Shown here: one piece after another, positions 29,759 through 45,095 of the stretch
How the letters are laid out: every line of letters begins with the position of its first letter
Position numbering within the stretch: the first letter of the stretch is position 1
From: Klebsiella phage KP13-16
DNA length: 64,000 nucleotides
Reading direction: 5' to 3' (one strand)
Sequence record: OP617741.1
Position numbers and translations under genes: made by a program
Notes under the pieces: generated by a model
What the model was told of the DNA's origin: nothing
The model's input: the letters and a program-made list of their open reading frames with translations, nothing else
The model's database searches: none

Positions 29759-31111
29759 ATGAGTAAAGAATTTGTTATTGAGACTGTATTAAATACATTT
29801 AAATATGAAAAAGCTCTTTTCAAAGAGTGTAATATGATGATTGCAGGCGGTGTTTTTACTTCCCTTTTTACCAAGAAAGAAGTAAATGATGTTGATTGCT
29901 ATTTTCGATCTAAAGCTGATCTTGTTCGCTTTCTGAATTATATTTCTGAGTACGGCGATAATCGTTTTTGTATCTCTATTACTGATAAATCTGTGACGTT
30001 GGTTGGTGGAAGTGTACCAATTCAATTGATCTATTTTAAGTATTTTGAAGATCTTCAAGATGTTTTCAACACTTTTGACTTCACAATCTCAATGTGTGGA
30101 TATGATTTCAAAACTGAAAAACTAGAATATCATCCTGATTTCTTTAGTGATTTATCACAACGCCGTCTGAGTTTTAATAAAAATACAGCATATCCTTTGG
30201 TTAGTGCTTTACGTGTAAATAAATTTAAAGATCGTGGGTATCAGATTTCTCGTAGTGAAATGATTAAGCTTCTTTTAACTGTTTCACAGCTTGAAATTAA
30301 AACACCCCGCCAGTTTATTGAGCAGATTGGTGGTTTCTATGGCAACAGTGCTTTGGCTGCGCTTTCCAAACTGGATGATAAAGATTTTGATCTTGAAAAA
30401 GGTCTGAAGGTCTTGCATGAATCTTCTGAAGGAAGTAACCCAGAAATCAATAAAGTTATTTCTAAACCTAACGAATCTAAGCTTGCTGTTCATCAACTTG
30501 CTCGCTTGATTGATTCAGATAATCCATTAGAGGGTGGTTGGTATCGAGAAGATAATGTGGCCTATTATAAATCTAAATATGGTCGTCATAGTATTCCTTT
30601 GGATATTGCTTTGCTGTTTGCACCTCAAAATGAAGTCTTTGAAAATGTAAACCCAGAAGAGCCTACTAGTGGAATGTTTTATAAATGGGTGCATAAAACA
30701 GAGAATCCAAATATCTTTAAATCTATTCACCGAGATTCTTTCTTATACGAACTGGGTAAAGATGCCGTAGATGAGCAATCTGGCTTATTCTTCTGCAAGG
30801 ATACAGATATTAAAGACCACTACTTTGCAAATCGTGAAGGCGTTGTTATGTTGATGTGTCTTGCAGAAATTAAAGATCGAACGGCTCACAGATCTAATGA
30901 ACTTCGTTTCACTAAGGTTAAAGTTCTGAGTGTTGTTAATGAGCCTTATGTCAAATCTCCTGACCTGTCTACTGTAGATATTAGTAGTAAATTTAATATC
31001 AAAGTCTCAGAGAATCATTGTCGAAATGAAGAACTGGATTTGGAAGATTTGCCTGAAGAAAATGAAGGGAGTACTGTTGAACCCCTCAGTGTAACCGGAC
31101 CAGTGTTTTGA
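29759..31111 (+). CDS. putative pol-beta-superfamily nucleotidyltransferase-fold protein (450 aa)
   Basis: N-terminal MIAGGVFTSLFTKKEVNDVDCYF (GG..x9..DVD) and downstream FDFTISM resemble hG[GS]..Dh[DE]h plus third-Asp strand of minimal/CD-NTase-type nucleotidyltransferases; rest unassigned. Confidence 0.3.
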   Translation: MSKEFVIETVLNTFKYEKALFKECNMMIAGGVFTSLFTKKEVNDVDCYFRSKADLVRFLNYISEYGDNRFCISITDKSVTLVGGSVPIQLIYFKYFEDLQDVFNTFDFTISMCGYDFKTEKLEYHPDFFSDLSQRRLSFNKNTAYPLVSALRVNKFKDRGYQISRSEMIKLLLTVSQLEIKTPRQFIEQIGGFYGNSALAALSKLDDKDFDLEKGLKVLHESSEGSNPEINKVISKPNESKLAVHQLARLIDSDNPLEGGWYREDNVAYYKSKYGRHSIPLDIALLFAPQNEVFENVNPEEPTSGMFYKWVHKTENPNIFKSIHRDSFLYELGKDAVDEQSGLFFCKDTDIKDHYFANREGVVMLMCLAEIKDRTAHRSNELRFTKVKVLSVVNEPYVKSPDLSTVDISSKFNIKVSENHCRNEELDLEDLPEENEGSTVEPLSVTGPVF

Positions 31112-31248
31112 TAATCAAAAATTAGCGGTCTAGAAAGCAATATGAGAGGTTTTTAGAGAGAAGATATCCGTATGGGTTACTTTAAACTAAAACCTCTCAA
31201 AATCGTTTCTAGGTGTCTTAAATTTGATCTGTAGTTTTAAAGGAAAAT

Positions 31249-31533
31249 ATGAGACGATTAACAGATAGAGAACAGATAGAATTCCTTATGGCTTACTTAC
31301 CTTCTGTAGGACATACAAAAGGTACACCATTTGAAGAGGCAACTCTTACTCTGGATAGTGGAAGACCTTTTGACATCTACTCTATGAAAGAAATTTTAGA
31401 GCTTTTGCACCATATGAACATAGTTGCTGCAACAGGTGCTGTATCACCCACAGATAAATTTGTTTATATTTGGTTAAAGCATCATGGAATTATTGATGCG
31501 TTTTCTTACCTAAATGAACATATAAATAGTTAG
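31249..31533 (+). CDS. hypothetical protein (94 aa)
   Basis: ORF track. Confidence 0.3.
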   Translation: MRRLTDREQIEFLMAYLPSVGHTKGTPFEEATLTLDSGRPFDIYSMKEILELLHHMNIVAATGAVSPTDKFVYIWLKHHGIIDAFSYLNEHINS

Positions 31534-31720
31534 TAACCACTATACCTATATGTTGTGTGTTTTGTCTTTTACAGACACTATAAAAGTCATGAACTTTGAT
31601 CGGGCTGGAAGCCTTGGTATCTCTGGCCTGGAAGCAAAACAGTATTAGGATGGAGTATAGTACCCTCCCAGAAATTATAATAATTATAATTAATCATATT
31701 AATATTAAGTAAGGAGTTAG

Positions 31721-33001
31721 ATGAGTAAGATAGAATATGAAACATCTTATGAAAGGATCCTAAGATTAGATAATAAAAGAATTGGTCAGATGTACCCTAT
31801 AATCTTCAGAGGAAGAAAAGATGGGTGTCATGATATTGTAGAAAATATCTTAGGGTTAATTACAGATCATACTACTAAGCAGAAAGAGATTGAGTGTTAC
31901 AGAACTTTACTTTATAATCTAGTTTATTCTTATTGTTACAAAGGTTATGAAGGTATAGTTTTTTCTTCTAATAAAAATAATTTTAAGAGTTATTATGTAC
32001 TGAATGGAACTAAACATAAAACTAAAATTTATTATGATGGATCCAGAAGATTCTTGGACAAGATGAAAAACCTAGGATACCTAACTTCAGCCCCAGGTGG
32101 GAGTTTAGGTGTACATGGATACAAACCAGGTTATATTCTTTTCACTGATAAGTTCAAAAGAGAAGTTGGAGAATATGATCTTGTAGAGATCGTTCCAGAA
32201 AAGAATTTAGTCCGTATGAGAAACAGAAAAACAGGAGAGTATATGATCTTTAAGGAAACAGATGAAGTCATTGAAATGATAAAGTTGACTCGTGAGTATA
32301 ACCAGATGATGGAACAATGGAATGTTGAACTCAATGGTGTCCCTATCAACAGTGACATTTATCGTCTCTTTCTGGACTCTATGGATTACTATGCAAGATG
32401 GCATGGTGAATTCCAGATTATTCCTTCTGAACAACGGCAGGATATAACGTTTGATTTAAATCCTACTAAAGAGATTGACTTTCAGGCTAGTCACATCACC
32501 ATTATGTATGCTATGAAAGGTCTTCAGATCACTGATTCAGATCCTTATGATCCTCAAAAGGTTATGGCAAATATTGACTTGGATGAGGTGGACTTCAATG
32601 GTTGTAGTCTCACTAGAAAAGATCTTAAAACCTTTGTCATGATGATGATCAATTGTAAATCTCATACCTCTGCTGTCAAAGCACTTGCAAACGAGGAATC
32701 TTTGAGTTATAAGTATGGGAAAGGTCATACTTTCTATAGCAGTATCCTTCTTGCTCTCGAAATGATCCACCATGAGATCTCTGATTTATTCTATGTTCCT
32801 GGCTTCTCTATGACGTTGATGAAACAAGAATCCGAGGTTATGGCAGAGATTTTAAGAAAATGTGTAGAAAATGAGTTGCCTGTTCTACCAATTCATGATA
32901 GTGTTGTCTGCATGGAAGAACATGTGAGAGAGGTCAATCAAATCATGCTTGACAGTTTCTTTGAAAAGTGGCATGTTCAATGTACAACTAAGATTAAGTG
33001 A
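31721..33001 (+). CDS. hypothetical protein (426 aa), AT-rich island
   Basis: ORF track; preceded by very AT-rich promoter-like tract with ATTATAAT repeats. Confidence 0.4.
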   Translation: MSKIEYETSYERILRLDNKRIGQMYPIIFRGRKDGCHDIVENILGLITDHTTKQKEIECYRTLLYNLVYSYCYKGYEGIVFSSNKNNFKSYYVLNGTKHKTKIYYDGSRRFLDKMKNLGYLTSAPGGSLGVHGYKPGYILFTDKFKREVGEYDLVEIVPEKNLVRMRNRKTGEYMIFKETDEVIEMIKLTREYNQMMEQWNVELNGVPINSDIYRLFLDSMDYYARWHGEFQIIPSEQRQDITFDLNPTKEIDFQASHITIMYAMKGLQITDSDPYDPQKVMANIDLDEVDFNGCSLTRKDLKTFVMMMINCKSHTSAVKALANEESLSYKYGKGHTFYSSILLALEMIHHEISDLFYVPGFSMTLMKQESEVMAEILRKCVENELPVLPIHDSVVCMEEHVREVNQIMLDSFFEKWHVQCTTKIK

Positions 33002-33011
33002 GGTATTTACT

Positions 33012-33521
33012 ATGGTGAGTATTAAATTAGATACATATGCAGTTCGTCAGTTGTTCCCAGAAGGAACTCAAGCTTATGTAGATTTGCAACAATCAGTTAT
33101 TTCAAATATTGCTAAAGACCTTATCATTAAGGATACTGGCAATAAAGTTCGTAAACTGATTCAAGACGAAATCAATGCTTATGGACTAGTTGTTCCTGAT
33201 GTATCAGACATTGTCAAGAAAGAAGTCGATACTTGGTTCGAATCCCGTGGTTATGGCTCTGTTTATTATAATGTGTCAAATGTCTTTAAAGGACGTATGC
33301 AAGAAGCAGCAGATCGTGAAGCACGTGCAACTATTGACGCTGTTATCAGTGATGTAATTAAAACCGCTACTGATAGAGCAATGAAAGATATTGAATACAA
33401 AATCGAAGCTGCTACTCAACGTATTGAGAAAATCATTGTTGATCGTGTTAACCAGAGCTTTGCTTCAATCATCGATCAGGCTGTAGCAGAGAAAATCAAG
33501 AAAGCTATCCCAGGATTATAA
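33012..33521 (+). CDS. hypothetical protein (~170 aa)
   Basis: ORF track; start moved to ATG 33012 (MVSIKLD) after RBS GAGGT to avoid overlap. Confidence 0.35.
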   Translation: MVSIKLDTYAVRQLFPEGTQAYVDLQQSVISNIAKDLIIKDTGNKVRKLIQDEINAYGLVVPDVSDIVKKEVDTWFESRGYGSVYYNVSNVFKGRMQEAADREARATIDAVISDVIKTATDRAMKDIEYKIEAATQRIEKIIVDRVNQSFASIIDQAVAEKIKKAIPGL

Positions 33522-33655
33522 ACTAGAGTGCAAAATAACACGTCTAGAATCAAATCTGAGGTGTTTAATATCTAAAAATGAGTTACCCTACAGCTTAAAA
33601 TAATAACGTCTTATAATCGCTTATAGAAGCTTTAAAATAATATAGGAGTTAATTA

Positions 33656-33838
33656 ATGAGTAAGACTAAAGTTTGTGTAAGTTCATTTGATAACCCAAAA
33701 ATTGCTGCTTGTGGTGGCCCCTATAATGACTTTTACATTACACCCTATTGTAGGGAAGTAATTACATGCAAAAAATGTCGTAAAACAAAAGAGTTTAAGA
33801 ACTTACCAAATGCTCATGCAAAGGGGTTTAAGAAATGA
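33656..33838 (+). CDS. small Cys-rich protein (60 aa)
   Basis: ORF track; CVSS...CGGP...CKKCRK zinc-ribbon-like. Confidence 0.3.
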   Translation: MSKTKVCVSSFDNPKIAACGGPYNDFYITPYCREVITCKKCRKTKEFKNLPNAHAKGFKK

Positions 33839-34245
33839 ATAAAACTATTGAAACTTGGATTAAAAATGTAAAAACATACCCTCCTGCTGAGATCTTCTTT
33901 GAAAAGTATGGAAAAGAGGCCAAATCAGAGAAAAGAATCCAGGATCTTTGTGAAGAAGTTTATCGGTTTTGCTTCCCTGAAGGAGAGAAGAATCCATTAT
34001 CAGATCTTTCTCAATCATATCGAGAACTTGAAGTAGCTTATATTCTTGGTTTTGAGGGAATGAAGAAAGAATATCTTCAAAAGGTTAAAGATAAATTTCT
34101 TGAAGATGCCAAGTATGCTATTAAAGCATTAGACAACCTCTTCAAAAAAGATCAATTACTTCAAAAATATTATGTAGACTGGAAACTTAAATATTCTGAA
34201 TTGGAAACAGAAGTATATAAAATGACTAAGGGGTATTTGCAATGA
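33835..34245 (+). CDS. hypothetical protein (136 aa)
   Basis: ORF track. Confidence 0.35.
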   Translation: MNKTIETWIKNVKTYPPAEIFFEKYGKEAKSEKRIQDLCEEVYRFCFPEGEKNPLSDLSQSYRELEVAYILGFEGMKKEYLQKVKDKFLEDAKYAIKALDNLFKKDQLLQKYYVDWKLKYSELETEVYKMTKGYLQ

Positions 34246-34484
34246 AAGTTATTATTACAGCAGAGGCACGTGTTCATCTTTCTAAAATTGTAGAAATGAG
34301 TGAAGAAGATTATGAAAAATATAAAGAAATTGTTGTTGATTCTACGGGTTTAACTTATAGAGAAATAGATCAAGAGATTGCAAAACTCGCAGATAAATAT
34401 GATTTTGGTTATGGTGACGATATAGAGGACATGGAAGACCCGGAAGAGGTTACTTTTCAGGTTTTTAAAGAGGGTTCAAATTGA
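34242..34484 (+). CDS. hypothetical acidic protein (80 aa)
   Basis: ORF track. Confidence 0.3.
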   Translation: MKVIITAEARVHLSKIVEMSEEDYEKYKEIVVDSTGLTYREIDQEIAKLADKYDFGYGDDIEDMEDPEEVTFQVFKEGSN

Positions 34485-37400
34485 AAAAATTTTCACCTAC
34501 AAAAGAGCAAAAAGAATCTTTAAATGTTTTTGAAATTGAACAGATTCTAAAGATTTCAGCAAAGGCTGGTACAGGTAAGGCCCAACCACTCACAGCAGTA
34601 GTAAAAACCCCAAACGGGGATGTAGAATTAGGAAAAATTAATATTGGAGATTCTGTATTTAGAAAAGATGGCAGTATTGGTAAAGTAACAGGAGTTTTTC
34701 CTCAAGATGGACTTCAACCAACATATAAAGTAACGTTTCGAGATGGATCTAGTACAGAATGTAATGGTGAGCACATTTGGAGTGTATATGGAGGGAAATA
34801 TAAGGATAAAATTGTTAACAGAACTTTAAATGAAATGCTTGAAAAAGGCTTATATAATTCTCTGGGAGATATGAAGTATAAGATTCCTATGGCAGAACCA
34901 GTCCAATATCAAACAAAAGCCTTTGATATTGATCCATATGTTTTAGGAGTTTTAATTGGTGATGGCTATCTTTGTGGAACAACACCAGCGTTTAGTGTAG
35001 GAGAAAAAGATAAAGAAATCTTAGAGTTGGTTCAAAAAATTTATCCAAATTGGATTTATGGGAAACATATTACAGGTAAAAATTGTATCCAGTATAGTAT
35101 CTCAGAGCCAACGAAAGGTAGAGTAAATAATATTAAAAATAAAATAGAAAATCTTGGTTTAAATGTAAAATCAAGCTTTAAATTTATACCTAATGAGTAT
35201 TTATATGGAGATGTCCGCCAAAGAATCCAATTACTTAGAGGGTTAATGGATACAGATGGAAGTTGCGTTAAAAATAGAACAAGTTTTACATCAACATCAA
35301 AAAACTTAATATTAGACTTAAAGACTCTTGTTCAAAGTCTTGGTGGAACAGCCATTGAAACTTATGTAGATGTGAGGAGTGAAAATTCATGTTATACATT
35401 GAATATTAAAACTCCAATGTGTCCTTTTAAGGTTAAAAGTAAAGCTTCACTTTGGACTAAAAGCAGTAAAAATCCTCCATCAAGATATATCAAGAGTGTT
35501 GAGTATGTAGGTGAAAAAGAACAAGTCTGTATCTCCGTTGACAGCGATGACCAATTATATTTAACAGATGAGTTTATTGTTACACATAATACATCAACAC
35601 TTAAATTTATTGCTGAATCTCATCCTGAGTTGACTTTCTTATATGTAGCTTTTAATAAGAGTATGGCAAACGATGCAGCCAAGAAGTTCCCAGATAACGT
35701 GCATGTTATGACCATTCATTCACTGGCATATCGTAACATTGGTAAGCACTATGCTCATAAATTGACTCGCCCAACTGGTCGTTATATTAATATGGCTGGG
35801 ACAGGATCTGAGATTGCACAACATTACGGTATTTTTGATATGAAAGACCATAATGGGGCGGTCTTGACTAAAAATTATCTTGGATTAATTGTAAAAGATA
35901 CAGTTAATACTTTTGAAAGGTCTGATAAAGATAAAATTACAGAATTTCATATTCCTAAGTTCCATATGGATGATGTCAAACGTCGATTTGCTCTTAAAGA
36001 ATCTAAAGTTAAAAAGGAAATTTTGAGTGTTGCTAAAAAACTTTGGGAAGATCGTTGTGACAAAGAGGAACGAATCCTTTGCACACATGATACTTATCTA
36101 AAACTGTATCAGATGAGTAAACCTAAGTTTGAAACTTATGACTGTGTTCTGATTGACGAAGCACAGGATACTAGTGATGTAATGATTTCACTTTTCTCTA
36201 ATATTAAACCTAAAATCGTCTATGTTGGTGATAAACACCAATGTGTTTCTGGAGAAACTGTACTTGAGACACCTTGTGGTAATAAGCTTATGCAAGATCT
36301 TTCCATAGGAGATGAAGTAAAATCTTACAGAAACGGTCAACAAGTCTATCGTAGAGTGTTGAATAAAACTTTATCAAATCGTACAGAAGGATTAAGTGTT
36401 GCTACTCGGAATGGTAATATCCTAGATATGACACTAAATCATAAAATTTGGGCTACCAGTTTTAATTTACAAGAAAAACAGATGATTGTATATCTTATGT
36501 GGAGAAAAGACCTTGGATTCCGTGTTGGTATTACCAATAAGATAAAAGATAGTTATGGTAATATTAGTTTTGGTCAGAGAACTTTACATGAACGTGCACA
36601 AAAATTTTGGATTCTAGATGTTGTAGCTAATCGTGAGGAAGCTCTTGAAAAAGAACTTACATATAGCTTACAGTATGGTATCCCAATGTGCGTATATGAA
36701 GCAAAATCACGAGGTCTGAATCAAGATCGTATTAATAACATTTTTAAAATTTTTGGCAAAAATGGTTTCATTTTATTATCAGAAAAAGATTACTCTTTTG
36801 AATACCCGCATTGGCACAATATCAATTCACGCTCAGTTAACCGTAAAATGTTAACAGTACATTTGACAGCACATTGTGTCAAAGGTAGCCAAGTTTCTTT
36901 TGAGTGGACAGAGGAAGACATGCCAATTACTTCTACTTTAGAAGATGCTGGAATTAAAGTTACATATGCTAAAAAGAGTGGAAGATTTCGTGTACGTAAA
37001 TGGTTTAGTAGCTACATTGAAGCATTAGAGTTTTCTAATGATATTTGTGATTTAGTACCTTATGCATCAATTACAGAGCGAATGGCCTACACATCTGAGC
37101 ACAAGTTAAATTTATTACCTGCGGCTTGTCTGTTTGAAGGGATGTCTGTACTAATAGATGATGGATGTGGAAATACTGTAATAGATGAGATTATCTCTAT
37201 TACCCCACATAAAGGTGAGTATTTTGATATTGAAGTAGAAGATACTGCTAATTTCTTTGGTAATGGAATTCTTAGCCATAACTGCATTTACGGTTGGCGT
37301 GGATCAGTTAACGCTATGGAGAAAATCAGTGCACCAGAAGTTAAATTAACTCAATCATTCCGATTTGGTAAAGATATTGCAGATGTAGCAAAATTGATTA

Positions 37401-38077
37401 TTGATGAAGAGGTAACAGGACTGGAATCTATTAAGTCAATTGTTGGTGAGATTGATCCTAATAAGCCTTATACTGTCCTTTATCGTAAGAATGTGACCTT
37501 AATTTTTGAAGCACTTGAGATGATTGCAAGAGGTGAGAAAATCTTCCTGAATATTGATGTAAGGGACTTTGTCTCTATGCTCGAATCTGCTCTATATCTT
37601 CACAATAAACAAATTAAGAAGGTTAAACATGAGCTTATTGTACCATACGCAACATGGGGAGATTTAGTCAATGAAGCACAATCTGATCCAAGTATGGGTA
37701 AACTCGTTAAAATTGTCCAGGAAGGTCGTGCTCAAGAAGTTATCAACAATTTAAACTTTAGTGAAAAGAGTGAAGCGACTGCTGATGTTATTTTGACAAC
37801 TAGCCATAAAGCGAAGGGTCTTGAATGGGATCAGGTTGTCCTTGCAGATGATTTTAAGTCTTGTTATGACAGTAAAGGTAAACTTCAGAAAGTTGACCAA
37901 GAAGAAGATAACCTACTTTATGTAGCTTGTACTCGTGCACGTAAAGTCCTGAAACCAAACAGTGTTGTTGAAGAAAAATTTCTGTTAAAAGGAATCCCTA
38001 TCCCTTATAAAATTGCACATTTTGGTGTAGGCGATAGTGAAAGTATTGACCAATTTTTTGTTACTGAGGAGCAATAA
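34481..38077 (+). CDS. UvrD/PcrA-like SF1 DNA helicase interrupted by two inteins (extein ~514 aa)
   Basis: Walker A reconstituted as AKAGTGK|TSTL across intein 1; motif III reconstituted as VGDKHQ|CIYGWRGS across intein 2; C-terminal ILTTSHKAKGLEWDQVVL and LLYVACTRARKVL (motif VI-like). Confidence 0.7.
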   Translation: MKKFSPTKEQKESLNVFEIEQILKISAKAGTGKAQPLTAVVKTPNGDVELGKINIGDSVFRKDGSIGKVTGVFPQDGLQPTYKVTFRDGSSTECNGEHIWSVYGGKYKDKIVNRTLNEMLEKGLYNSLGDMKYKIPMAEPVQYQTKAFDIDPYVLGVLIGDGYLCGTTPAFSVGEKDKEILELVQKIYPNWIYGKHITGKNCIQYSISEPTKGRVNNIKNKIENLGLNVKSSFKFIPNEYLYGDVRQRIQLLRGLMDTDGSCVKNRTSFTSTSKNLILDLKTLVQSLGGTAIETYVDVRSENSCYTLNIKTPMCPFKVKSKASLWTKSSKNPPSRYIKSVEYVGEKEQVCISVDSDDQLYLTDEFIVTHNTSTLKFIAESHPELTFLYVAFNKSMANDAAKKFPDNVHVMTIHSLAYRNIGKHYAHKLTRPTGRYINMAGTGSEIAQHYGIFDMKDHNGAVLTKNYLGLIVKDTVNTFERSDKDKITEFHIPKFHMDDVKRRFALKESKVKKEILSVAKKLWEDRCDKEERILCTHDTYLKLYQMSKPKFETYDCVLIDEAQDTSDVMISLFSNIKPKIVYVGDKHQCVSGETVLETPCGNKLMQDLSIGDEVKSYRNGQQVYRRVLNKTLSNRTEGLSVATRNGNILDMTLNHKIWATSFNLQEKQMIVYLMWRKDLGFRVGITNKIKDSYGNISFGQRTLHERAQKFWILDVVANREEALEKELTYSLQYGIPMCVYEAKSRGLNQDRINNIFKIFGKNGFILLSEKDYSFEYPHWHNINSRSVNRKMLTVHLTAHCVKGSQVSFEWTEEDMPITSTLEDAGIKVTYAKKSGRFRVRKWFSSYIEALEFSNDICDLVPYASITERMAYTSEHKLNLLPAACLFEGMSVLIDDGCGNTVIDEIISITPHKGEYFDIEVEDTANFFGNGILSHNCIYGWRGSVNAMEKISAPEVKLTQSFRFGKDIADVAKLIIDEEVTGLESIKSIVGEIDPNKPYTVLYRKNVTLIFEALEMIARGEKIFLNIDVRDFVSMLESALYLHNKQIKKVKHELIVPYATWGDLVNEAQSDPSMGKLVKIVQEGRAQEVINNLNFSEKSEATADVILTTSHKAKGLEWDQVVLADDFKSCYDSKGKLQKVDQEEDNLLYVACTRARKVLKPNSVVEEKFLLKGIPIPYKIAHFGVGDSESIDQFFVTEEQ
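34580..35590 (+). mobile_element. intein 1 (337 aa) in helicase P-loop, with LAGLIDADG homing endonuclease domain
   Basis: block A-like AQPLTAVVKTPNGDVELGKINIGDSVF starting with Ala; two LAGLIDADG motifs (YVLGVLIGDGYL, LLRGLMDTDGSC); C-terminal IVTHN followed by Thr+1; length divisible by 3. Confidence 0.65.
36242..37282 (+). mobile_element. intein 2 (347 aa) in helicase motif III
   Basis: canonical block A CVSGETVLETPCGNKLMQDLSIGDEV, block B TLNHKIW, C-terminal GILSHN followed by Cys+1; central insert domain of unrecognised type. Confidence 0.65.
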
Positions 38078-38079
38078 AA

Positions 38080-38325
38080 ATGCGATTAATTTCCCCATAC
38101 CCAAGGCCACAAAAGCCAGGTAGAGCCTACTATGAATCTGTGTATAAAGATTGTGTTATGGTTTATGCAGAAGATTTGGCAATTGGTGATACCCTCCGCT
38201 ATGGAGGGATTGTTGAAAGTGTAGTCGTTTATAGACAGACAGGAAAGGTTCAATTTTCTATAGCAGGAAAATCTAATAATATTGAAATTTCTGTTGGGTC
38301 AATGATAAATCTTAAGGTGAATTAA
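38080..38325 (+). CDS. hypothetical protein (81 aa)
   Basis: ORF track. Confidence 0.3.
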   Translation: MRLISPYPRPQKPGRAYYESVYKDCVMVYAEDLAIGDTLRYGGIVESVVVYRQTGKVQFSIAGKSNNIEISVGSMINLKVN

Positions 38326-38805
38326 ATGAGTAATGAAATATTAATTGAAGTGAATAATGAGTTAGTAGCAACTATCGATAAGTGTCGTGAAATTGTCAAC
38401 TGTCCGAAGGGTATAGATTTGCAGGACCATCTGCGACAGTTGGCTGCGGAGAATATGGCGCTATCGAAGGATGCTCAGCGTTATCGCTTTATCAGAGAAA
38501 GGGACATGTTCGGTTCAGACAATGAATCTGGATTGTTGAGTTGGGAGGAACTCACCGAGCTTGAGTGCAAAGAATTCGATGATGCACTTGATGCAAGAAT
38601 TAACCATCCAAATACTGGTTTTATAGAGTTTGACGCCAAGCTGCAAGCTCGCGAAACCCTCGCCACCGATCGGATCCTAGCCGGGATTAAGGCTGATGGG
38701 GTAGAGGAGTTTGCAAAGTACATCTCACTCTATAATAGCGGTGCTAAACATCATACGATTAATTTTGCAAAACATCTGCGTGAGGGTCTGACAAATGAAT
38801 TTTAA
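38326..38805 (+). CDS. hypothetical protein (159 aa), GC-richer codon usage
   Basis: ORF track; noticeably higher GC than flanks. Confidence 0.35.
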   Translation: MSNEILIEVNNELVATIDKCREIVNCPKGIDLQDHLRQLAAENMALSKDAQRYRFIRERDMFGSDNESGLLSWEELTELECKEFDDALDARINHPNTGFIEFDAKLQARETLATDRILAGIKADGVEEFAKYISLYNSGAKHHTINFAKHLREGLTNEF

Positions 38806-39142
38806 TTTTAAGTCAGGTACTGGTAAGATTACTATCAATGGACAGGATTATATTGGTGGTAATATGTATATTAATGGTGATAAAGTTGTGATAGATGGAA
38901 AAGTTATCATGGATAGTCTTGTTGGAGACCTAAATATCACTATTCATGGAGACGTCGATAAGCTTGAGACGGGTTCAGGAGATGCTACTATTTACGGAAA
39001 TGTTGAGAGTGCTTCGACCATGAGCGGAGATCTTTTTTGTGAAACAGTTAAAGGAGATGCAAGCACTATGTCAGGGGATATCAATGCTAAGACAATTCAT
39101 GGTAAAGCTAAATCAATGTCTGGAGATATTAACTATAAATGA
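38795..39142 (+). CDS. small protein with tandem GD/MSGD beta-strand repeats
   Basis: repeated STMSGDLF / STMSGDIN / KSMSGDIN and GDxxIxG units; bactofilin/beta-helix-like repetitiveness. Confidence 0.35.
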   Translation: MNFNFKSGTGKITINGQDYIGGNMYINGDKVVIDGKVIMDSLVGDLNITIHGDVDKLETGSGDATIYGNVESASTMSGDLFCETVKGDASTMSGDINAKTIHGKAKSMSGDINYK

Positions 39143-39816
39143 ATAAAGTCATCTATTGTATGTATGACGGATCTGGAATAGCAGGATTGCCATGGGCAGA
39201 AGCAGGATTTAACGTCTATTGCTTTAATGCCGATGAAGGTGATCATGGTGAATACTTCATTAAAATGCAACACCCTAATCTTCATTATATTAATATCTGG
39301 ATTGATAAAGATTTTAGACTAAAAGTAAAAGATATGGGAATACCTGATCCTAATTTTATTTTTGCTTTCCCAGACTGTACTAATGTTGCTGTAAGCGGTG
39401 CTCAACATGAAAAGACATCTGAACAAAAGAATGATGTAGTCCGTTCAGCTAAGTATGTAGAGTGGCTAGGTAATTATTATAATTGTCCTTGGATTGTCGA
39501 GAATCCTGTTTCTCAATTAGCAACTAAGTGGAGAAAACCAAATTCATATTTTGACCCGTATGAGTACGGCGGCTATCTCACAGGTGAAGAAGAACAGTTT
39601 CATCCAAAAATGCCAAAGTTTGATGCTTATACTAAGAAAACATCTCTTTGGTATGGAAATGGCTTTAAAGTTCCACCTAAGAAGCCAGTGCAACACATTG
39701 GCTATTGTTGGTCTTGGAGACATCTAGGCGGGAAGGGCAAGAAAACTAAAATTTTACGTTCTTTAACTCCACGTGGATGGGCGAAGGCTGTTTTTGAAAG
39801 TAACTCAGGATTGTGA
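39139..39816 (+). CDS. short C5-cytosine DNA methyltransferase-like protein (225 aa)
   Basis: motif I-like CMYDGSGIAG, motif IV-like FPDC, motif VI IVENPV; lacks a full-size target recognition region. Confidence 0.4.
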   Translation: MNKVIYCMYDGSGIAGLPWAEAGFNVYCFNADEGDHGEYFIKMQHPNLHYINIWIDKDFRLKVKDMGIPDPNFIFAFPDCTNVAVSGAQHEKTSEQKNDVVRSAKYVEWLGNYYNCPWIVENPVSQLATKWRKPNSYFDPYEYGGYLTGEEEQFHPKMPKFDAYTKKTSLWYGNGFKVPPKKPVQHIGYCWSWRHLGGKGKKTKILRSLTPRGWAKAVFESNSGL

Positions 39817-39980
39817 TATTTTATTGATCAGAGCTTTTATATTTTGACTTAAAAATCTGCACAAGAGAAGGCTTCACCTAAAATCTATGAGAAATTACGG
39901 TCTAGCTTTCTTTATATTAGGTGTATATTTAGTTTAAATAAAGTTTCATGTTAAAAGCATGTTCGATCTAGCATTTTTGA

Positions 39981-40225
39981 CATTTCGGATTTTAAAATCC
40001 ATAATTTTTTAGTGAAAAGTCAATTCCATGTTTTTAAAAGTGACATTTACAATGCAATGCAGTATAGCAAATACAGATTTTTATTCAAAATGTTTAATAT
40101 TCAAACCGTTTTAAATTTTATGAAAATTTTTTGTGGCAAATCGGGAAAAATTTGTAGCATTTTGGACATCCCTATTTTCAAAATCCATAATTTTCTGGTT
40201 CACATCATACCCATGTTTTTATCCA
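39981..40225 (+). repeat. imperfect ~60-bp direct repeat pair in AT-rich intergenic region
   Basis: ACATTTCGGATTTTAAAATCCATAATTTTTT...CCATGTTTTTA (39981-40045) vs ACATCCCTATTTTCAAAATCCATAATTTTCT...CCATGTTTTTA (40161-40225). Confidence 0.5.
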
Positions 40226-40251
40226 GGCAGTTTCTTGGGAATATCTCTAAG

Positions 40252-40330
40252 TGAGAATGGTTCTCATTTGAGAAGTTGAATGATAATCATTCTCATTTAT
40301 AAAACGAAATAAGACTCATTCGCATTTGCG
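40252..40330 (+). promoter_or_regulatory. cluster of Fur-box-like palindromic operators overlapping a sigma70-like promoter
   Basis: TGAGAATggTTCTCA (40252-40266); TTGAAT(40276-81)-GATAATCATTCTCATT-TATAAA(40298-40303), box 15/16 to Fur consensus core AATGATAATCATTATC; third half-site AGACTCATTCGCATT. Confidence 0.5.
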
Positions 40331-40583
40331 GAATGACGGGCAGGTTCGGTGTTTGTCTCGCGATTCCCGTTACCCCTCGCCATGTAGAAATAATAACATA
40401 ACCAACACTAGGATCAAGCGTCTTTACATTTCTTTACAAAACTATTCAAGGCGAGCTACCGGCGATTCACCTTCCGACCTGGCCCCCGCGCCTGGTACGT
40501 TAGCCCCGCCTTTTCGCCGTGGGGTGGCGTGTCCTCTTCTTTATGGATACATTATGCCCCATTCCCTGGGGCGTGTCAACACA

Positions 40584-40793
40584 TTAAACACCATATTTGA
40601 TAAAATCCCTGGCGGCTTGTGTAGGCTGATATTCTACGCCGTAAGCGTCATCCACCTGCACAAGAAAACCTTTCTTAATCAAGCCCGTTATTGCCCGGCG
40701 AGCTGCTGTATAACTGGTGAAATGTGAATCATTGCTAAAAGTGAAACCGTGTTTAATAGCTATTTCAAGAGTGAGTTTTTCTGTTTTGGTCAT
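40584..40793 (-). CDS. small hypothetical protein (69 aa), GC-rich
   Basis: ORF track; coherent composition; possible winged-helix-like. Confidence 0.35.
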   Translation of the reverse strand: MTKTEKLTLEIAIKHGFTFSNDSHFTSYTAARRAITGLIKKGFLVQVDDAYGVEYQPTQAARDFIKYGV

Positions 40794-40898
40794 TGTCCGA
40801 TCCTCGTTATGCCTCCACCGTGGCGGCTTGTTAATTACTATATACTAATGAAGGGAAAACGCAAGCGAAAAATTTAGAAAAATATTTGCATCCAAGTA

Positions 40899-40927
40899 TT
40901 GACGGGAAGATCAAGAGGGACTATTAT
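40899..40927 (+). promoter_or_regulatory. sigma70-like promoter
   Basis: TTGACG-N17-TATTAT upstream of ORF 40991. Confidence 0.4.
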
Positions 40928-40990
40928 TCACTACACAAGGCGAGGCGATAGGCGCACCGTGAGAGCAACGATAACCAGGAAGAAAAGAAA

Positions 40991-41212
40991 ATGGCAACAT
41001 TACACGTAGTAGTTTATAAGCACGCGGTAACGGGCGATGATATGATCCAGGTGCTTGTTAATGGCTTTTGTGAAATGGAACGAGAAGGCGATTTCAACGG
41101 TTATTGCATTGTGTGTGCTTTCCTTGATTCCCTGGTTGAAATGTGTGTTATCACTCATGAGCAGCGCGAAGCGAAGATCAACCGCCTGAAAAAACTTTTA
41201 GATATCGAATAA
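40991..41212 (+). CDS. hypothetical protein (73 aa)
   Basis: ORF track. Confidence 0.35.
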   Translation: MATLHVVVYKHAVTGDDMIQVLVNGFCEMEREGDFNGYCIVCAFLDSLVEMCVITHEQREAKINRLKKLLDIE

Positions 41213-41219
41213 AAACCGC

Positions 41220-41278
41220 TTGACAGATTCGCACAGTAACGTATAATTCACTTCATAGGCAGCGGGAATGGTTCCCGC
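41220..41278 (+). promoter_or_regulatory. PeSL-like cassette: consensus sigma70 promoter + stem-loop
   Basis: TTGACA(41220-25)-N16-TATAAT(41242-47) followed by hairpin GCGGGAA-tgg-TTCCCGC (41262-41278). Confidence 0.55.
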
Positions 41279-41301
41279 GCCGATATAAAGAGATTTGAAA
41301 A

Positions 41302-41592
41302 ATGAAAATTTCAGAGAACAAAGATTTAATTTTCACCGTTAAAAATTATATCCGCCACCCGTATGAATTTGGCGGATATCCGAAAATTTTAATTATGCGT
41401 GATGGTAGTTGCCTTTGTTCAAAGTGTACGCATGAAAATTTTCCCCGCCTATTGGAAGAATTAAGAGATGAGAGTGATCTAGCATGGATGCCCGCGGACG
41501 TGGATGTTTTCTGGGAAGGTGCGGATTTCCCGTGTGGTAATTGCCAGACTCCGATCCATAGTGCATATGGAGATCCCGAAGAAGAAGAATAA
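41302..41592 (+). CDS. hypothetical Cys-rich protein (96 aa)
   Basis: ORF track; CLCSKCTHE...CGNCQ. Confidence 0.35.
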   Translation: MKISENKDLIFTVKNYIRHPYEFGGYPKILIMRDGSCLCSKCTHENFPRLLEELRDESDLAWMPADVDVFWEGADFPCGNCQTPIHSAYGDPEEEE

Positions 41593-41595
41593 ATA

Positions 41596-41652
41596 TTGAC
41601 AAGCATCTAAAAGATAGTAAACTGTTAATCAAAGGGCGGGAATGGTTCCCGC
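41596..41652 (+). promoter_or_regulatory. PeSL-like cassette: TTGACA + same stem-loop
   Basis: TTGACA(41596-41601) and identical hairpin GCGGGAATGGTTCCCGC (41636-41652) in 5' leader of next ORF. Confidence 0.5.
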
Positions 41653-41672
41653 CAAAACAAAGAGAGAAAATT

Positions 41673-41834
41673 ATGATTGCTATGAATACCCGCGAAGCCG
41701 CTCGCAACGTAGCCCGTAAAGTTAATGCCGTTGCACCTGCTAAATTGAAAGCACCAGTGAAAGGCGAAAACGGCTGGATCTTCCCTGGCTTGTCTCATGC
41801 CGACAACAAAGGCACTTTGAGCCTGAAAAAATAA
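41673..41834 (+). CDS. small hypothetical protein (53 aa)
   Basis: below cutoff; RBS AGAGAG. Confidence 0.3.
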   Translation: MIAMNTREAARNVARKVNAVAPAKLKAPVKGENGWIFPGLSHADNKGTLSLKK

Positions 41835-41835
41835 G

Positions 41836-41872
41836 TTGACTTTTCGTTATAGCGCCTTATAATGGGCGCTAT
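41836..41872 (+). promoter_or_regulatory. sigma70-like promoter with inverted repeat flanking -10
   Basis: TTGACT-N16-TATAAT(41858-63); TATAGCGCC / GGCGCTATA palindrome around -10; first 15 nt identical to promoter at 42841. Confidence 0.5.
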
Positions 41873-41898
41873 AGAGAAGAGAAACCAGGAGTAGAAAA

Positions 41899-42051
41899 AT
41901 GAAAATGTATAACGTGGTAGTAGTGAACAATAAAACAGGCGTCAAAGTGATCATGAATGCTTCACCGTTAACCCATTTAGAAGGTTGCACTATGTTAGCT
42001 AAACTAACCAAATACACCTGGCGAACAGAAAAATTAGAAGAAATTTGTTGA
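41899..42051 (+). CDS. small hypothetical protein (50 aa)
   Basis: below cutoff; RBS GGAG; stop overlaps next TTGACT. Confidence 0.3.
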   Translation: MKMYNVVVVNNKTGVKVIMNASPLTHLEGCTMLAKLTKYTWRTEKLEEIC

Positions 42052-42085
42052 CTTTCTGTGATGCCTCTTTATAATAAGGGGCATT
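42048..42085 (+). promoter_or_regulatory. sigma70-like promoter with inverted repeat flanking -10
   Basis: TTGACT(42048-53)-N16-TATAAT(42070-75); ATGCCTC...GGGGCAT imperfect palindrome. Confidence 0.45.
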
Positions 42086-42120
42086 GAAGAGAGAAGCCAA
42101 ACAATCTAACGAGGTGTAAA

Positions 42121-42342
42121 ATGGTTACATTCGCAATTATTTCTCTGGTAGCTGGTAACGTGTTTATTAATGACACTTTCCCGGCGGATGATAGCAAACC
42201 TGGCGAGATCAGCACAGTTTATGCAGATTGTAAAGCCGCCGAACGTATGTTATCACCTTGCTTGCTGATGAGTGAACGCGACGACGGGAAGATCGTATTC
42301 ACGAACGTGGAAACATGGTATCAATTGGTAGTAGAAAAATGA
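42121..42342 (+). CDS. hypothetical protein (73 aa)
   Basis: ORF track. Confidence 0.35.
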   Translation: MVTFAIISLVAGNVFINDTFPADDSKPGEISTVYADCKAAERMLSPCLLMSERDDGKIVFTNVETWYQLVVEK

Positions 42343-42488
42343 ATCCTAAGCATAAAATGATGATGGAAGCAAGCCGTTTCATCAATAAAACAGAAAAAAG
42401 AAAATGTTTTGTTTTATGTCTTACAACGCTTGCAATTGGTTTAGTGTGTGTTATTATTACTTACACGAACATTGAAGCAGGAAATTAA
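42339..42488 (+). CDS. small membrane protein (49 aa)
   Basis: below cutoff; one predicted TM segment; ATGA coupling. Confidence 0.3.
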   Translation: MNPKHKMMMEASRFINKTEKRKCFVLCLTTLAIGLVCVIITYTNIEAGN

Positions 42489-42490
42489 AA

Positions 42491-42835
42491 ATGGCTAAAA
42501 ATATTAATAAAGCAGAAAAAAGTTTTGTTAAATTGTCGGATGTTGAATGCGTACATATTAATGCACGCCGATGGTTTCAACGTTCATATGGTAATACATA
42601 CTTTTCTTTAAAAGTAGACGTAGAAGTTAACGGACAGATTATTAATATTGTTAATGTGCCTTTTGAGTATGGTTATGGGGATCATTATGATTCTGTAGCT
42701 TTAAAAGAATTTAAAGAAGCTGTTATATTAGATGAAAAATTGGAGGACTACTGCTATTTATCACGTGCCCTTAAAGAATCTGGTATTTTAGTTTATAATC
42801 ATTGCTCTGATGTAGACCGTAAAAAAGATTTATAA
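42491..42835 (+). CDS. hypothetical protein (114 aa)
   Basis: ORF track. Confidence 0.35.
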   Translation: MAKNINKAEKSFVKLSDVECVHINARRWFQRSYGNTYFSLKVDVEVNGQIINIVNVPFEYGYGDHYDSVALKEFKEAVILDEKLEDYCYLSRALKESGILVYNHCSDVDRKKDL

Positions 42836-42840
42836 TTTAT

Positions 42841-42880
42841 TTGACTTTTCGTTATGCCCTGTTAGAATATAGGGCATAGA
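42841..42880 (+). promoter_or_regulatory. sigma70-like promoter with inverted repeat flanking -10
   Basis: TTGACT-N16-TAGAAT(42863-68); TATGCCCT / AGGGCATA palindrome. Confidence 0.45.
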
Positions 42881-42913
42881 GAAAAGAAATAACACTAACC
42901 AGGAATATCTAAA

Positions 42914-43114
42914 ATGACTAAATCTACTTTTGACTTTTCAAAAATGGTTGTTGAATCTACCGAATCCTTGAAAGGATTCAGAAAAGAAAGCGGCTATTAT
43001 AAATCATTGTCACTTGTTGGTTTACATGATAATCAAATTAAATCATTTGCCGAGATCCGCCATTATGCAACAAAAGCAACTACGTTTGTTTTTGGATTCA
43101 TTCCCCTATCTTAG
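42914..43114 (+). CDS. hypothetical protein (66 aa)
   Basis: ORF track. Confidence 0.3.
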   Translation: MTKSTFDFSKMVVESTESLKGFRKESGYYKSLSLVGLHDNQIKSFAEIRHYATKATTFVFGFIPLS

Positions 43115-43319
43115 GTTTATATGGTCAAGTAGGCGCAAAGGCTGGCGGTTATGGTTATAATAGATCTGAAGCAGCTATTTCTCAGGCAGCAAGAAAATTT
43201 AATATTGATGTCCCTAGCTGGTGCGATCAGCAAACATTATTAGAAGAACTTGCAAAATATTTAGGTTTAGAGGTATATTCTGTAATTGAAACAAATGCTT
43301 AAAACTTAAAGGTAGCATT

Positions 43320-43610
43320 ATGTTAAAACAGGCGAAAACTTATGTATTGAGTAAGTTTATTAAACGGGTATTAAATGACCCAGTTTATAAAACTTACTAC
43401 TGTTACAAAATACTTGATAACAAAGGTGATTATTTAATTTCTTCTGTGATGTGCCATGAGCAAGCGATGATCTTTGAAATAGGTTTAAGACAAAAGAAAG
43501 TTTTAAACGAAATAATTTCATTTGAAATTATTGCTCAAGGCGGCGAAGATGAAGTAACAGAAGAAAAATATCATGAAGAAAATTATATTAAACAAACATT
43601 GGAAGATTAA
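43320..43610 (+). CDS. hypothetical protein (96 aa)
   Basis: ORF track. Confidence 0.35.
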   Translation: MLKQAKTYVLSKFIKRVLNDPVYKTYYCYKILDNKGDYLISSVMCHEQAMIFEIGLRQKKVLNEIISFEIIAQGGEDEVTEEKYHEENYIKQTLED

Positions 43611-43612
43611 AG

Positions 43613-43744
43613 ATGCAAAGCAAAAATTTTGAAAAGATTAAGAGCAGTAAGCAACGTTTAGAATGTAATGAGACAGATGAACGCCGGGAGCGTAGTAATA
43701 AACGCAATAAGCCGCAGCGTAAGCGTTTTAATTGGGAAGAATAG
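43613..43744 (+). CDS. small basic protein (43 aa)
   Basis: below cutoff; TAAAGATG coupling. Confidence 0.25.
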   Translation: MQSKNFEKIKSSKQRLECNETDERRERSNKRNKPQRKRFNWEE

Positions 43745-43877
43745 GGAAACCTATTAATAAAGATTAAAGCCTCTTAGAATGGATTTTAGGGGCTTTAAAT
43801 TTGATTTAAATTTTTCTTGCTTTTTCCATTTTGTTGATCTATTCTCTTAATCAGGCAAACAAAGAGAGATTTACAAA

Positions 43878-44138
43878 ATGGAAACATTAAACATTTTAAA
43901 TGATAGATTCTGTTTTGATTTAATAGGTCTGTTAATTATTTCACCTGTAACTATTATTTACGCTATCCTAACTTTTAAAGGTCTAACTATGAAACAAAAT
44001 GTAATGAAGATCCACACTAACACCGGATCTACAATTGTTACCCCGTTTCATTTTGCAATGAAAAGCCGTTGCAAACGTCTTAAAAGTGAGTTAAAATCTA
44101 ACACAAATACAGGTTTTAAACGTTGGGGTAAAATCTAA
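43878..44138 (+). CDS. hypothetical protein (86 aa)
   Basis: ORF track. Confidence 0.3.
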   Translation: METLNILNDRFCFDLIGLLIISPVTIIYAILTFKGLTMKQNVMKIHTNTGSTIVTPFHFAMKSRCKRLKSELKSNTNTGFKRWGKI

Positions 44139-44440
44139 TGAAAGCGAATGATTCTTTTTTCTTCTCAGAATGTAAAGATCATGTTTTAGTTGACATTCAG
44201 TCATTTTCTAATACTATGAATTTTAGATTCACTAGTGAAAGAATAGTTGACAAAGGTCTATTGTTGACTATTACAACAAAGAAAGAAAAAGGTTGTTTTG
44301 AATTAAATTATAAGCTTTCACAAGACAATCAATTATTAGCCCAGGATGGCGGGAAAAATATTCCACCGAAAGATCTATTCTATGTCATTAGTGACATTGT
44401 TAATGATGCTTTTTCTTGCGAGATAAGATTAACAGCTTAA
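44138..44440 (+). CDS. hypothetical protein (100 aa)
   Basis: ORF track. Confidence 0.35.
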   Translation: MKANDSFFFSECKDHVLVDIQSFSNTMNFRFTSERIVDKGLLLTITTKKEKGCFELNYKLSQDNQLLAQDGGKNIPPKDLFYVISDIVNDAFSCEIRLTA

Positions 44441-44487
44441 AAAGAAAGTCAATAGCTTTTCCAATTATTTTTCATTTTTGCGTTATG

Positions 44488-44580
44488 CAAAAAAGTGAAT
44501 TTAAAGACTTCTCACACAAGATGATTAAGGGTATGGCAAACGGCTAGAACCTCTTAGAATGCGTTTTAGAGCGTTTTACG
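44488..44580 (+). repeat. repeated intergenic element copy (CAAAAAAGTGAAT ... CCTCTTAGAATG)
   Basis: shares 13-mer CAAAAAAGTGAAT and 12-mer CCTCTTAGAATG with 46531-46635; 12-mer also at 43770. Confidence 0.5.
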
Positions 44581-44795
44581 GGGTATTGACTTTTACCGAA
44601 AGGCTCAAAACGTCATATAGTTAGTTTCATCGTGCGATTGTTGCGGTACGAAATTACATGGCGACCGCTACAAATGGGACAATGCTGGATTAAAATAATG
44701 TGCATTATTTACGCCCTGGGGCTTGATCTCCCTGGGGCGTTTTGCTATCCTTATTTTGTGGCGGCAATGATGCCAACCACTAACGAGGATTTAAC

Positions 44796-45095
44796 ATGGA
44801 ACCTTTACAACTTCTTTCCACTTTACGCGCTATTGCCAACAACACTTTGATCGCTTGCCAGCGCCAGGAGTTTAAACCGGAATTCATCTATAAGAATCAT
44901 AACCAGCAGTTAGCCACCATTGAACAGGCGATCAGCGGTTACAATATGGGGGCAAAGGTTAACGCGAAATATAAAGCGGAGATCAAGAAAATAATGCTTG
45001 CACCAATGAAAGATAAGAATTATTATCTTATCTCAGAACAAGTAAAGCAAGGCGTAAATAAATTATCAAGCGCTATTGACTTTATGAAACGATAA
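44796..45095 (+). CDS. hypothetical protein (99 aa)
   Basis: ORF track. Confidence 0.35.
   Translation: MEPLQLLSTLRAIANNTLIACQRQEFKPEFIYKNHNQQLATIEQAISGYNMGAKVNAKYKAEIKKIMLAPMKDKNYYLISEQVKQGVNKLSSAIDFMKR

Follow-up and report, generated by a model that had tools for sequence, protein, structure and literature searches.

The 64,000-nucleotide (nt) stretch of Klebsiella phage KP13-16 analyzed here (OP617741.1; referred to below as the window) contains an open reading frame (ORF) for a UvrD-like helicase of 1198 amino acids (aa) plus stop codon (34481..38077, plus strand), which is split by two inteins. In our reading, to which we assign a probability of about 0.85, this ORF encodes the precursor of a 514-aa UvrD-like superfamily 1 (SF1) helicase, and two independent mobile inteins, one of class 3 in the Walker A motif and one of class 1 in motif III, each carrying a homing nuclease, would both be spliced out. 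Annotating the ORF as one giant helicase or as a fusion protein would then be wrong; it should be entered as a helicase precursor that holds two mature inteins. Both inteins belong to populous and already described kinds, and intein 2 has already been annotated in sister phages. The sole part lacking a prior explanation is the central domain of intein 2, which is abundant, shows enzyme-like conservation, is absent from the domain databases searched and is possibly a derivative of GIY-YIG nucleases.

The helicase precursor and its intein-less allele

The precursor ORF starts with a TTG codon overlapping the stop codon of the upstream ORF, and the sequence AGAGGG is located about 8 nt 5′ of this start. 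All parts of the precursor lie on the plus strand. An N-extein of 33 aa, collinear with the helicase of a related phage described below, ends with the AGTGK of Walker A (34481..34579) and is followed by intein 1 with 337 aa (34580..35590; precursor residues 34-370). The middle extein of 217 aa (35591..36241) reaches from Thr+1 of the Walker A GK-T to the VGDKHQ of motif III. Behind it are located intein 2 with 347 aa (36242..37282; precursor residues 588-934) and a C-extein of 264 aa (37283..38074), which begins with Cys+1 of the motif III sequence CIYGWRGS and holds the UvrD_C domain. In the translation, the junctions read KISAKAGTGK/AQPLTAVV...DEFIVTHN/TSTLKF for intein 1 and KIVYVGDKHQ/CVSGETVL...GNGILSHN/CIYGWRGS for intein 2 (slashes mark the splice junctions). 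Pfam searches assigned UvrD-helicase, UvrD_C, UvrD_C_2 and AAA_19 to the flanks, LAGLIDADG_3 to the first insert and Hint/Intein_splicing to the second. With Walker A, motif III and the UvrD N- and C-terminal domains, the extein is a UvrD/Rep-like SF1 helicase.

Among public sequences, the region is closest to Klebsiella phage vB_KpM_FBKp34 (MW394390.1; Stephanstirmvirinae), which covers 70% of window positions 30000-45000 with 95.5% identity. This coverage is broken into 14 pieces, and since only 70% of the 15 kb is covered in this way, the window phage has several more insertions or deletions beyond both inteins. The 'putative DNA helicase' of FBKp34 (QQV91751.1; gene at MW394390.1 28001-29545) comprises 514 aa and is without either insert. 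When both inserts were deleted from the window gene, the remaining 1545 nt aligned without gaps to the FBKp34 helicase gene (97.7% identity, 36 nt differences), and the resulting 514-aa product differs from the FBKp34 protein in 7 residues (98.6% identity). This gap-free match places both insertions with codon precision and reveals a natural allele that is empty at both sites. Because deletion of both inserts leaves a collinear, gap-free match, the two-insert structure is far beyond chance. Excision also restores the Walker A sequence AGTGK/TSTL and the UvrD motif III sequence VGDKHQ/CIYGWRGS. A preceding sequence-only reading had described the ORF as a UvrD-like helicase split by two inteins, with inserts at 34580-35590 and 36242-37282 that are multiples of three in length and whose removal restores both motifs; the Pfam domains and the FBKp34 match bear this out, and the junctions were exact. 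It was also right in placing intein 1 in the Walker A loop, with Ala at position 1, two LAGLIDADG motifs and a C-terminal His-Asn (HN) before Thr+1, and in calling intein 2 canonical on the basis of Cys1, a TxxH block, HN and Cys+1.

The empty and the filled alleles differ at a residue next to the second junction. At the +1 codon of motif III, the window gene has Cys (TGC, 37283-37285) and FBKp34 has Ala (GCA, L001:4745-4747; KHQ/AIYGWRGS). Ala is also present in the intein-less helicase encoded on a second sequence (L005; CNQ/AIYSFRGA), and intein-bearing alleles have Ser, Cys or Thr at this position. Co-conversion, or resistance of the empty site, may explain the difference. Further mismatches to FBKp34 closely flank the junctions, at positions 86 and 101 for junction 1 and at 725 and 749-752 for junction 2, which hints at co-conversion.

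The inteins are inserted into the two ATPase motifs that are most conserved in the helicase, and a working helicase would require the removal of both. The 514-aa helicase and two free inteins would be produced by two autocatalytic splicing reactions that are independent of each other. For mobility, the LAGLIDADG domain of intein 1 would cut empty alleles such as that of FBKp34 during co-infection, and the central domain of intein 2 would serve as its nuclease and cleave motif III where it lacks the intein, again in relatives such as FBKp34 that infect the same cell. Repair of the cut by recombination would insert the intein and carry over changes from its flanks, for example the Ala-to-Cys codon. 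Natural alleles with neither intein (FBKp34), with one each (helicases of a Vibrio phage and of phi92-like phages, see below) and with both (window) form a set that could serve to quantify homing and co-conversion among related phages, and the single precursor would permit a side-by-side comparison of class 3 and class 1 splicing.

Splicing elements of the two inteins

Class 3 inteins are defined by the lack of Ser, Thr or Cys at position 1 and by the WCT triplet, i.e. Trp at B:12, Cys at F:4 and Thr at G:5 (PMC3196547, PMC2807308, PMC7664689). Intein 1 begins with Ala1 (codon GCA at 34580). It has the block B sequence EHIW with His65 (B:10) and Trp67 (B:12; 34769..34780), the block F sequence VCISV (35525..35539) with Cys317 (F:4; codon 35528-35530), which is followed by Asp (VCISVD), and the block G sequence VTHN (35579..35590) with Thr335 (G:5), His336 and Asn337 in front of Thr+1. 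In phmmer searches of PDB sequences, the Hint halves of intein 1 matched gp41-1 (best match the WCT-engineered 6riz), 6qaz, DnaB1 of M. chimaera (6rix/6riy) and DnaBi1 of M. smegmatis (6bs8), with E values of 1e-10 for gp41-1_WCT and of 2e-5 to 5e-5 for the three DnaB class 3 chains. The Trp, Cys and Thr of the triplet align residue for residue with those of the solved inteins (EHIW with (A/Q)HQW, vCISVD with rCVEVD, THN with THN); Trp67 aligns to Trp67 of MchDnaB1, and Cys317 to the block F Cys of MchDnaB1, MsmDnaBi1 and gp41-1_WCT.

The same pattern is found in the family of intein 1, for which 120 of the 122 relatives found were aligned using MAFFT. Position 1 varies and in most relatives is not a nucleophile (Ala in 62, Ser in 12, Glu in 9, Gly in 5, Cys in 2 and Pro in 2, besides others), and the triplet is kept nearly throughout, with Trp at B:12 in 102/105, Cys at F:4 in 109/112 and Thr at G:5 in 108/111. 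The +1 residue is Thr in 88 and Ser in 17 relatives. A variable residue 1 combined with an invariant block F Cys is the signature expected of the class 3 mechanism. Nearly all of these inteins are inserted right after the GK of the P-loop, in hosts including PhoH, RecD-like AAA_30, AAA_24, SNF2, DnaB, IstB and terminase proteins. A second site outside the P-loop is also used by this family in PhoH-like ATPases (...LAYLRGR/...THN/TF; P0032, P0033, P0037, P0040, P0051 and others).

By its residues, intein 1 is a class 3 intein, without an N-terminal nucleophile and with a complete WCT triplet. The sequence-only reading had proposed non-canonical splicing of a class 2/3-like kind, of which the non-canonical part holds, since an N-terminal nucleophile is lacking, and class 2 does not. 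In class 2 inteins, the Cys+1 residue attacks the N-terminal junction directly, so that no block F nucleophile is needed; they have no WCT triplet and are known only in KlbA (PMC2807308, PMC3196547). KlbA inteins also begin with Ala (PMC2807308), a feature shared by intein 1, but in place of Cys+1 intein 1 has Thr+1, it carries Trp67, Cys317 and Thr335 in alignment with the class 3 DnaB inteins, and the F:4 Cys is retained in its relatives while position 1 varies freely. We therefore rejected a KlbA-type class 2 mechanism, which is highly improbable.

For intein 1 as a class 3 intein, splicing is predicted to proceed via a block F branched thioester that depends on the F:4 Cys. Cys317, the predicted initiating nucleophile, would attack the Lys33-Ala34 peptide bond of the precursor and form this branched thioester, after which the N-extein would be transferred to the hydroxyl group of Thr+1. 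Cyclization of Asn337 would free the intein, and an O-to-N shift would rebuild the GK-T bond of Walker A. The embedded endonuclease was recognized as LAGLIDADG_3 by Pfam (E value 1e-7) and has two motifs, each with a catalytic acidic residue: YVLGVLIGDGYL (34937..34972; residues 120-131) with Asp128, and LLRGLMDTDGSC (35231..35266; residues 218-229) with Asp226. In the family alignment, Asp128 is conserved in 110/114 and Asp226 in 115/120 relatives. Since both residues are kept, the LAGLIDADG endonuclease of intein 1 looks intact.

Intein 2 has the residues of a canonical class 1 intein: Cys1, the block B sequence TLNH with Thr64 and His67 (36431..36442), the block F sequence FDIEV with Asp at F:4 as typical of class 1 (37223..37237), the block G sequence LSHN with His346 and Asn347 (37271..37282), and Cys+1. 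Its C-terminus matches TIGR01443 (intein_Cterm). Splicing would start with an acyl shift at Cys1 and continue with trans-thioesterification to Cys+1 and cyclization of Asn347, and an S-to-N shift would finally rebuild motif III.

We infer both splicing, with the order of the reactions, and endonuclease activity; for splicing and cleavage this is done from sequence alone, and a WCT triplet grafted onto a class 1 intein was insufficient for splicing (PMC7664689), so that the motif by itself is no proof of activity. Both points weigh against our reading and leave room for one or both inserts being dead inteins, with the helicase function lost or supplied by the host or a co-infecting phage. A splicing-dead class 3 example, Arsp-FB24 Arth_1007, is known (PMC3196547), but it is without the F:4 Cys and has only 66 aa of extein. 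In the window, the reading frame is open over its full 3.6 kb, none of the known catalytic residues is missing from either intein, and the exteins are nearly identical to an orthologue of working length. The helicase is moreover conserved across the phage group. Dead inteins are thus unlikely, and splicing of both inteins remains the preferred reading.

The central domain of intein 2 and its free-standing relatives

Between its splicing blocks, intein 2 carries a central domain of about 215 aa (intein residues ~76-290; 36467..37111), for which no match was found in Pfam, PHROGs, NCBIfam or the PDB sequences, either alone or as a profile. The central insert had been noticed from the sequence as an unrecognized segment of about 250 aa; it is real, but smaller than that. 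AlphaFold2 models had a pLDDT (predicted local distance difference test) score of 91.5 for the whole intein 2 and of 87.6 for the central domain alone, and showed two beta-beta-alpha-beta-alpha subdomains linked by two helices. Subdomain 1, whose modeled fold weakly resembles that of GIY-YIG nucleases, corresponds to intein residues 81-153 (36482..36700). In a set of 94 representatives with pairwise identities of at most 50%, Tyr84, Met86, Gly92, Arg94, Gly96, Arg113, Glu117, Trp123 and Glu138 are each kept in 92-94 sequences and are as invariant as the splicing residues. The most invariant residues of the domain are all located in subdomain 1, as would be expected of an active site rather than of an insert in decay. 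The central domain is probably the homing nuclease of intein 2.

As to the type of nuclease, the top 50 matches in a search of BFVD with the predicted fold included no fewer than seven proteins named as GIY-YIG or as group I intron endonucleases, one of them with a probability of 0.99 over 73 columns. This similarity is weak but recurrent. When the domain was aligned with a small GIY-YIG profile using HHalign, VYLM was in register with GVYIF, FRVG with IYIG, and EALEKE with EAFILE, at nil significance; in this register, Tyr84, Gly96 and Glu138 fall on the Tyr, Gly and Glu of UvrC, Glu138 on its metal-binding Glu. The position of the His/Tyr of GIY-YIG nucleases is taken by Glu117, and the Asn is present in 44/94 representatives, while Tyr84, Gly96, Arg113 and Glu138 are invariant and collinear. 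Our best reading of the model is a GIY-YIG-like nuclease core followed by a second, probably DNA-binding, subdomain; we infer this relationship from fold and residue order and do not assign the domain to the GIY-YIG superfamily.

Several results speak against a GIY-YIG origin. The HHalign probabilities were 0.4-1.4% and the best P value was 0.036, which is not significant, although these tests rested on a thin profile (number of effective sequences, Neff, ~2.2-2.6), because the I-TevI search gave only 9 near-identical fragments. In the 20 members scanned with Pfam, PF01541 (GIY-YIG) was absent even at E≤10. The second Tyr of the GIY-YIG motif is replaced by the invariant Arg94, and the best PDB matches found by Foldseek were LAGLIDADG meganucleases (E ~0.02, probability ~0.2, template modeling (TM) score ~0.2). 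The domain might instead be a LAGLIDADG-like endonuclease that has diverged strongly, a nuclease with a new fold, or a module without catalysis that binds DNA or has a regulatory role. This group of alternatives, which has close to an even chance, is favored by the meganuclease matches, by the construction of the domain from two pseudo-repeated beta-beta-alpha-beta-alpha halves and by the non-significant profile tests. A LAGLIDADG meganuclease identity as such was not adopted, the fold matches being judged too weak at this TM score, and matches to calmodulin kinases (E ~0.09-1.1) were attributed to chance. A phage 'adenine specific DNA methyltransferase' in BFVD (A0A8S5TZY8) also matched the central domain (Foldseek E value 1e-6), which indicates that the domain may extend beyond helicase hosts.

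Free-standing relatives of intein 2 bear on its presumed role in mobility. The proteins P0003 and P0006 consist of a truncated Hint domain and a full central domain and lack both Cys1 and the terminal HN. Their genes are located directly 3′ of genes for intein-less UvrD-like helicases; the upstream helicase is complete in L005 (VGDCNQ/AIYSFRGA), and in L008 only its last 59 aa are encoded, at the end of the contig. Free-standing genes related to intein 2 were observed at L005:425-2929, in L006 and L007, and at L008:2-1270, and they belong to two separate lineages. They look like an intein turned homing-endonuclease gene. A position beside an intein-less helicase is typical of homing-endonuclease genes next to their target and provides independent support for a mobility function of the central domain.

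GIY-YIG endonucleases were not known inside inteins as of Dassa et al. 2009 (PMC2677866), and no later description of the central domain of intein 2 was found in the literature searched. The domain could be the founding example of an undescribed intein-borne homing-nuclease family that has a GIY-YIG-derived core of Tyr84/Arg94/Arg113/Glu117/Glu138, is widespread in bacterial and phage UvrD-type helicases (at least 1395 clusters at 50% identity), and is able to turn free-standing beside its target helicase. If true, this would add a nuclease type to the few that reside inside contiguous inteins (LAGLIDADG, HNH). This wider proposal is tentative, and we would sooner expect it to fail in some part than to hold as a whole.

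Distribution of the inteins and comparison with known systems

Among 50,697 phage genome records, none covers at least 80% of the precursor, so that a helicase with both inteins is absent from this collection. Double-intein phage helicases with an Ala1 intein had been called uncommon on the basis of the sequence, and for phage records this agrees with the search; two metagenomic proteins, however, share the site pair of the window. P0169 (1703 aa) carries GSGK/AQP...FIVTHN/T and a motif III intein, and P0180 has a mini-intein version of the first intein together with the second. Further metagenomic UvrD-like proteins of 1100-2500 aa contain two or three inteins (P0127-P0131, P0169, P0180, P0184, P0192, P0216). 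Their insertion sites are the P-loop (class 1 or class 3), DEAQDLN/C, motif III and possibly AN.LI.HN/C.

The rarity was overstated in that reading, given that each intein type is common alone and that a Vibrio phage orthologue has an Ala1 intein at the same site. By tblastn, relatives of intein 1 were detected in 842 of the phage records, none with more than 47.5% identity, and the best matches were Vibrio phages. In P-loop ATPases of phages, class 3 inteins are abundant and have been on record since 2010; a survey of actinobacteriophages listed 287 class 3 inteins among 784 (bioRxiv 10.1101/2025.01.02.630785), and the P-loop is a well-known hotspot of intein insertion (PMC4760082).

Relatives of intein 2 are present in 54 of the phage records. 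An apparent rarity of this intein in a word-indexed search (6 relatives) was an artefact, since hardly any protein above ~600 aa was listed by that search. In an exhaustive profile search, the middle domain was found in 1395 cluster representatives at E≤1e-3 and in 590 at E≤1e-10. All nine hosts scanned with Pfam are UvrD-type helicases, and each of 93 full-length copies is inserted in motif III, at GDxxQ/[S/C]IYxFRGA. These copies have Cys1 in 92/93 cases, HN (82) or SN (11) at the C-terminus, and Ser (76), Cys (16) or Thr (1) at +1.

Besides these two inteins, local profiles detected no further inteins or GIY-YIG genes elsewhere in the window. Just 3′ of the helicase gene, an ORF of 115 aa with a repeated (S/T)MSGD(I/L) motif was observed (38795-39142, plus strand).

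The nearest counterpart of the window helicase with respect to intein 1 is the 'putative DNA helicase' of Vibrio phage 424E50-1 (CAH9012234.1; also in K412, K460 and K470), an orthologue with 40.7% extein identity. It has an Ala1 LAGLIDADG intein with the WCT triplet at the identical Walker A site (GSGK/AQP...VCISVD...FIVTHN/TTT; 46.8% intein identity), but its motif III is uninterrupted, and in the record the Walker A intein is left unannotated. Among described class 3 inteins, the prototype from DnaB of mycobacteriophage Bethlehem (MP-Be) comprises 341 aa with His65, Cys320 and Thr+1, compared with 337 aa, His65 and Cys317 in intein 1 (PMC2807308). Intein 1 shares with the class 3 DnaB inteins (MP-Be, 6rix/6riy, 6bs8) the missing N-terminal nucleophile, the WCT triplet, His at B:10, the terminal HN and Thr+1, as well as the insertion into the P-loop of a phage or helicase ATPase and the embedded LAGLIDADG endonuclease. 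It differs from them in its host, a UvrD-like SF1 helicase of an enterobacterial myovirus instead of DnaB, in having Ala instead of Pro as residue 1, and in its low identity to the solved Hint domains.

For intein 2, the counterparts are found in phi92-like phages (phi92 gp198, VEcB, ECGD1, Klebsiella phage KP2025 and others), which have a relative with ~60% identity at the same site. In Escherichia phage PaulScherrer, bas60_0082 is annotated as 'intein-containing UvrD/Rep family helicase precursor' with an intein feature of 347 codons. This intein (346 aa by translation, from Cys1 to Asn) has the same central domain, the class 1 residues and the junctions GDxxQ/C...SHN/CIY. Unlike the window gene, the phi92-like helicases carry this intein alone, and their exteins are only ~41% identical to those of the window. 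Between the window and PaulScherrer, intein 2 is better conserved than its host helicase (60.5% compared with 40.9% identity), which is the pattern expected of horizontal spread by homing. Four records labeled 'Campylobacter phage' (MG065639.1, MG065645.1, MG065656.1 and MG065689.1; 146 kb) also contain the phi92-type helicase and the intein, at the same identity as the E. coli phages, and their 'Campylobacter' host label looks doubtful.

The central domain resembles I-TevI, the UvrC N-terminal domain and SLX1 in its beta-beta-alpha-beta-alpha order, its association with mobile elements and its weak fold matches, and the predicted core has Tyr in strand 1, Gly in strand 2, Arg in helix 1 and Glu in the middle of helix 2 after strand 3, as in GIY-YIG nucleases. 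It deviates from these enzymes by Arg in place of the second Tyr, by Glu instead of His/Tyr four residues past the Arg, by the lack of significant profile similarity and by its in-frame fusion within an intein. The yeast HO endonuclease is a free-standing derivative of the VMA1 intein. P0003 and P0006 are similar to HO in retaining Hint remnants and the central domain with the splice residues lost; they differ from it in being bacterial or phage genes of predicted function that adjoin the gene of their intein-less target helicase.

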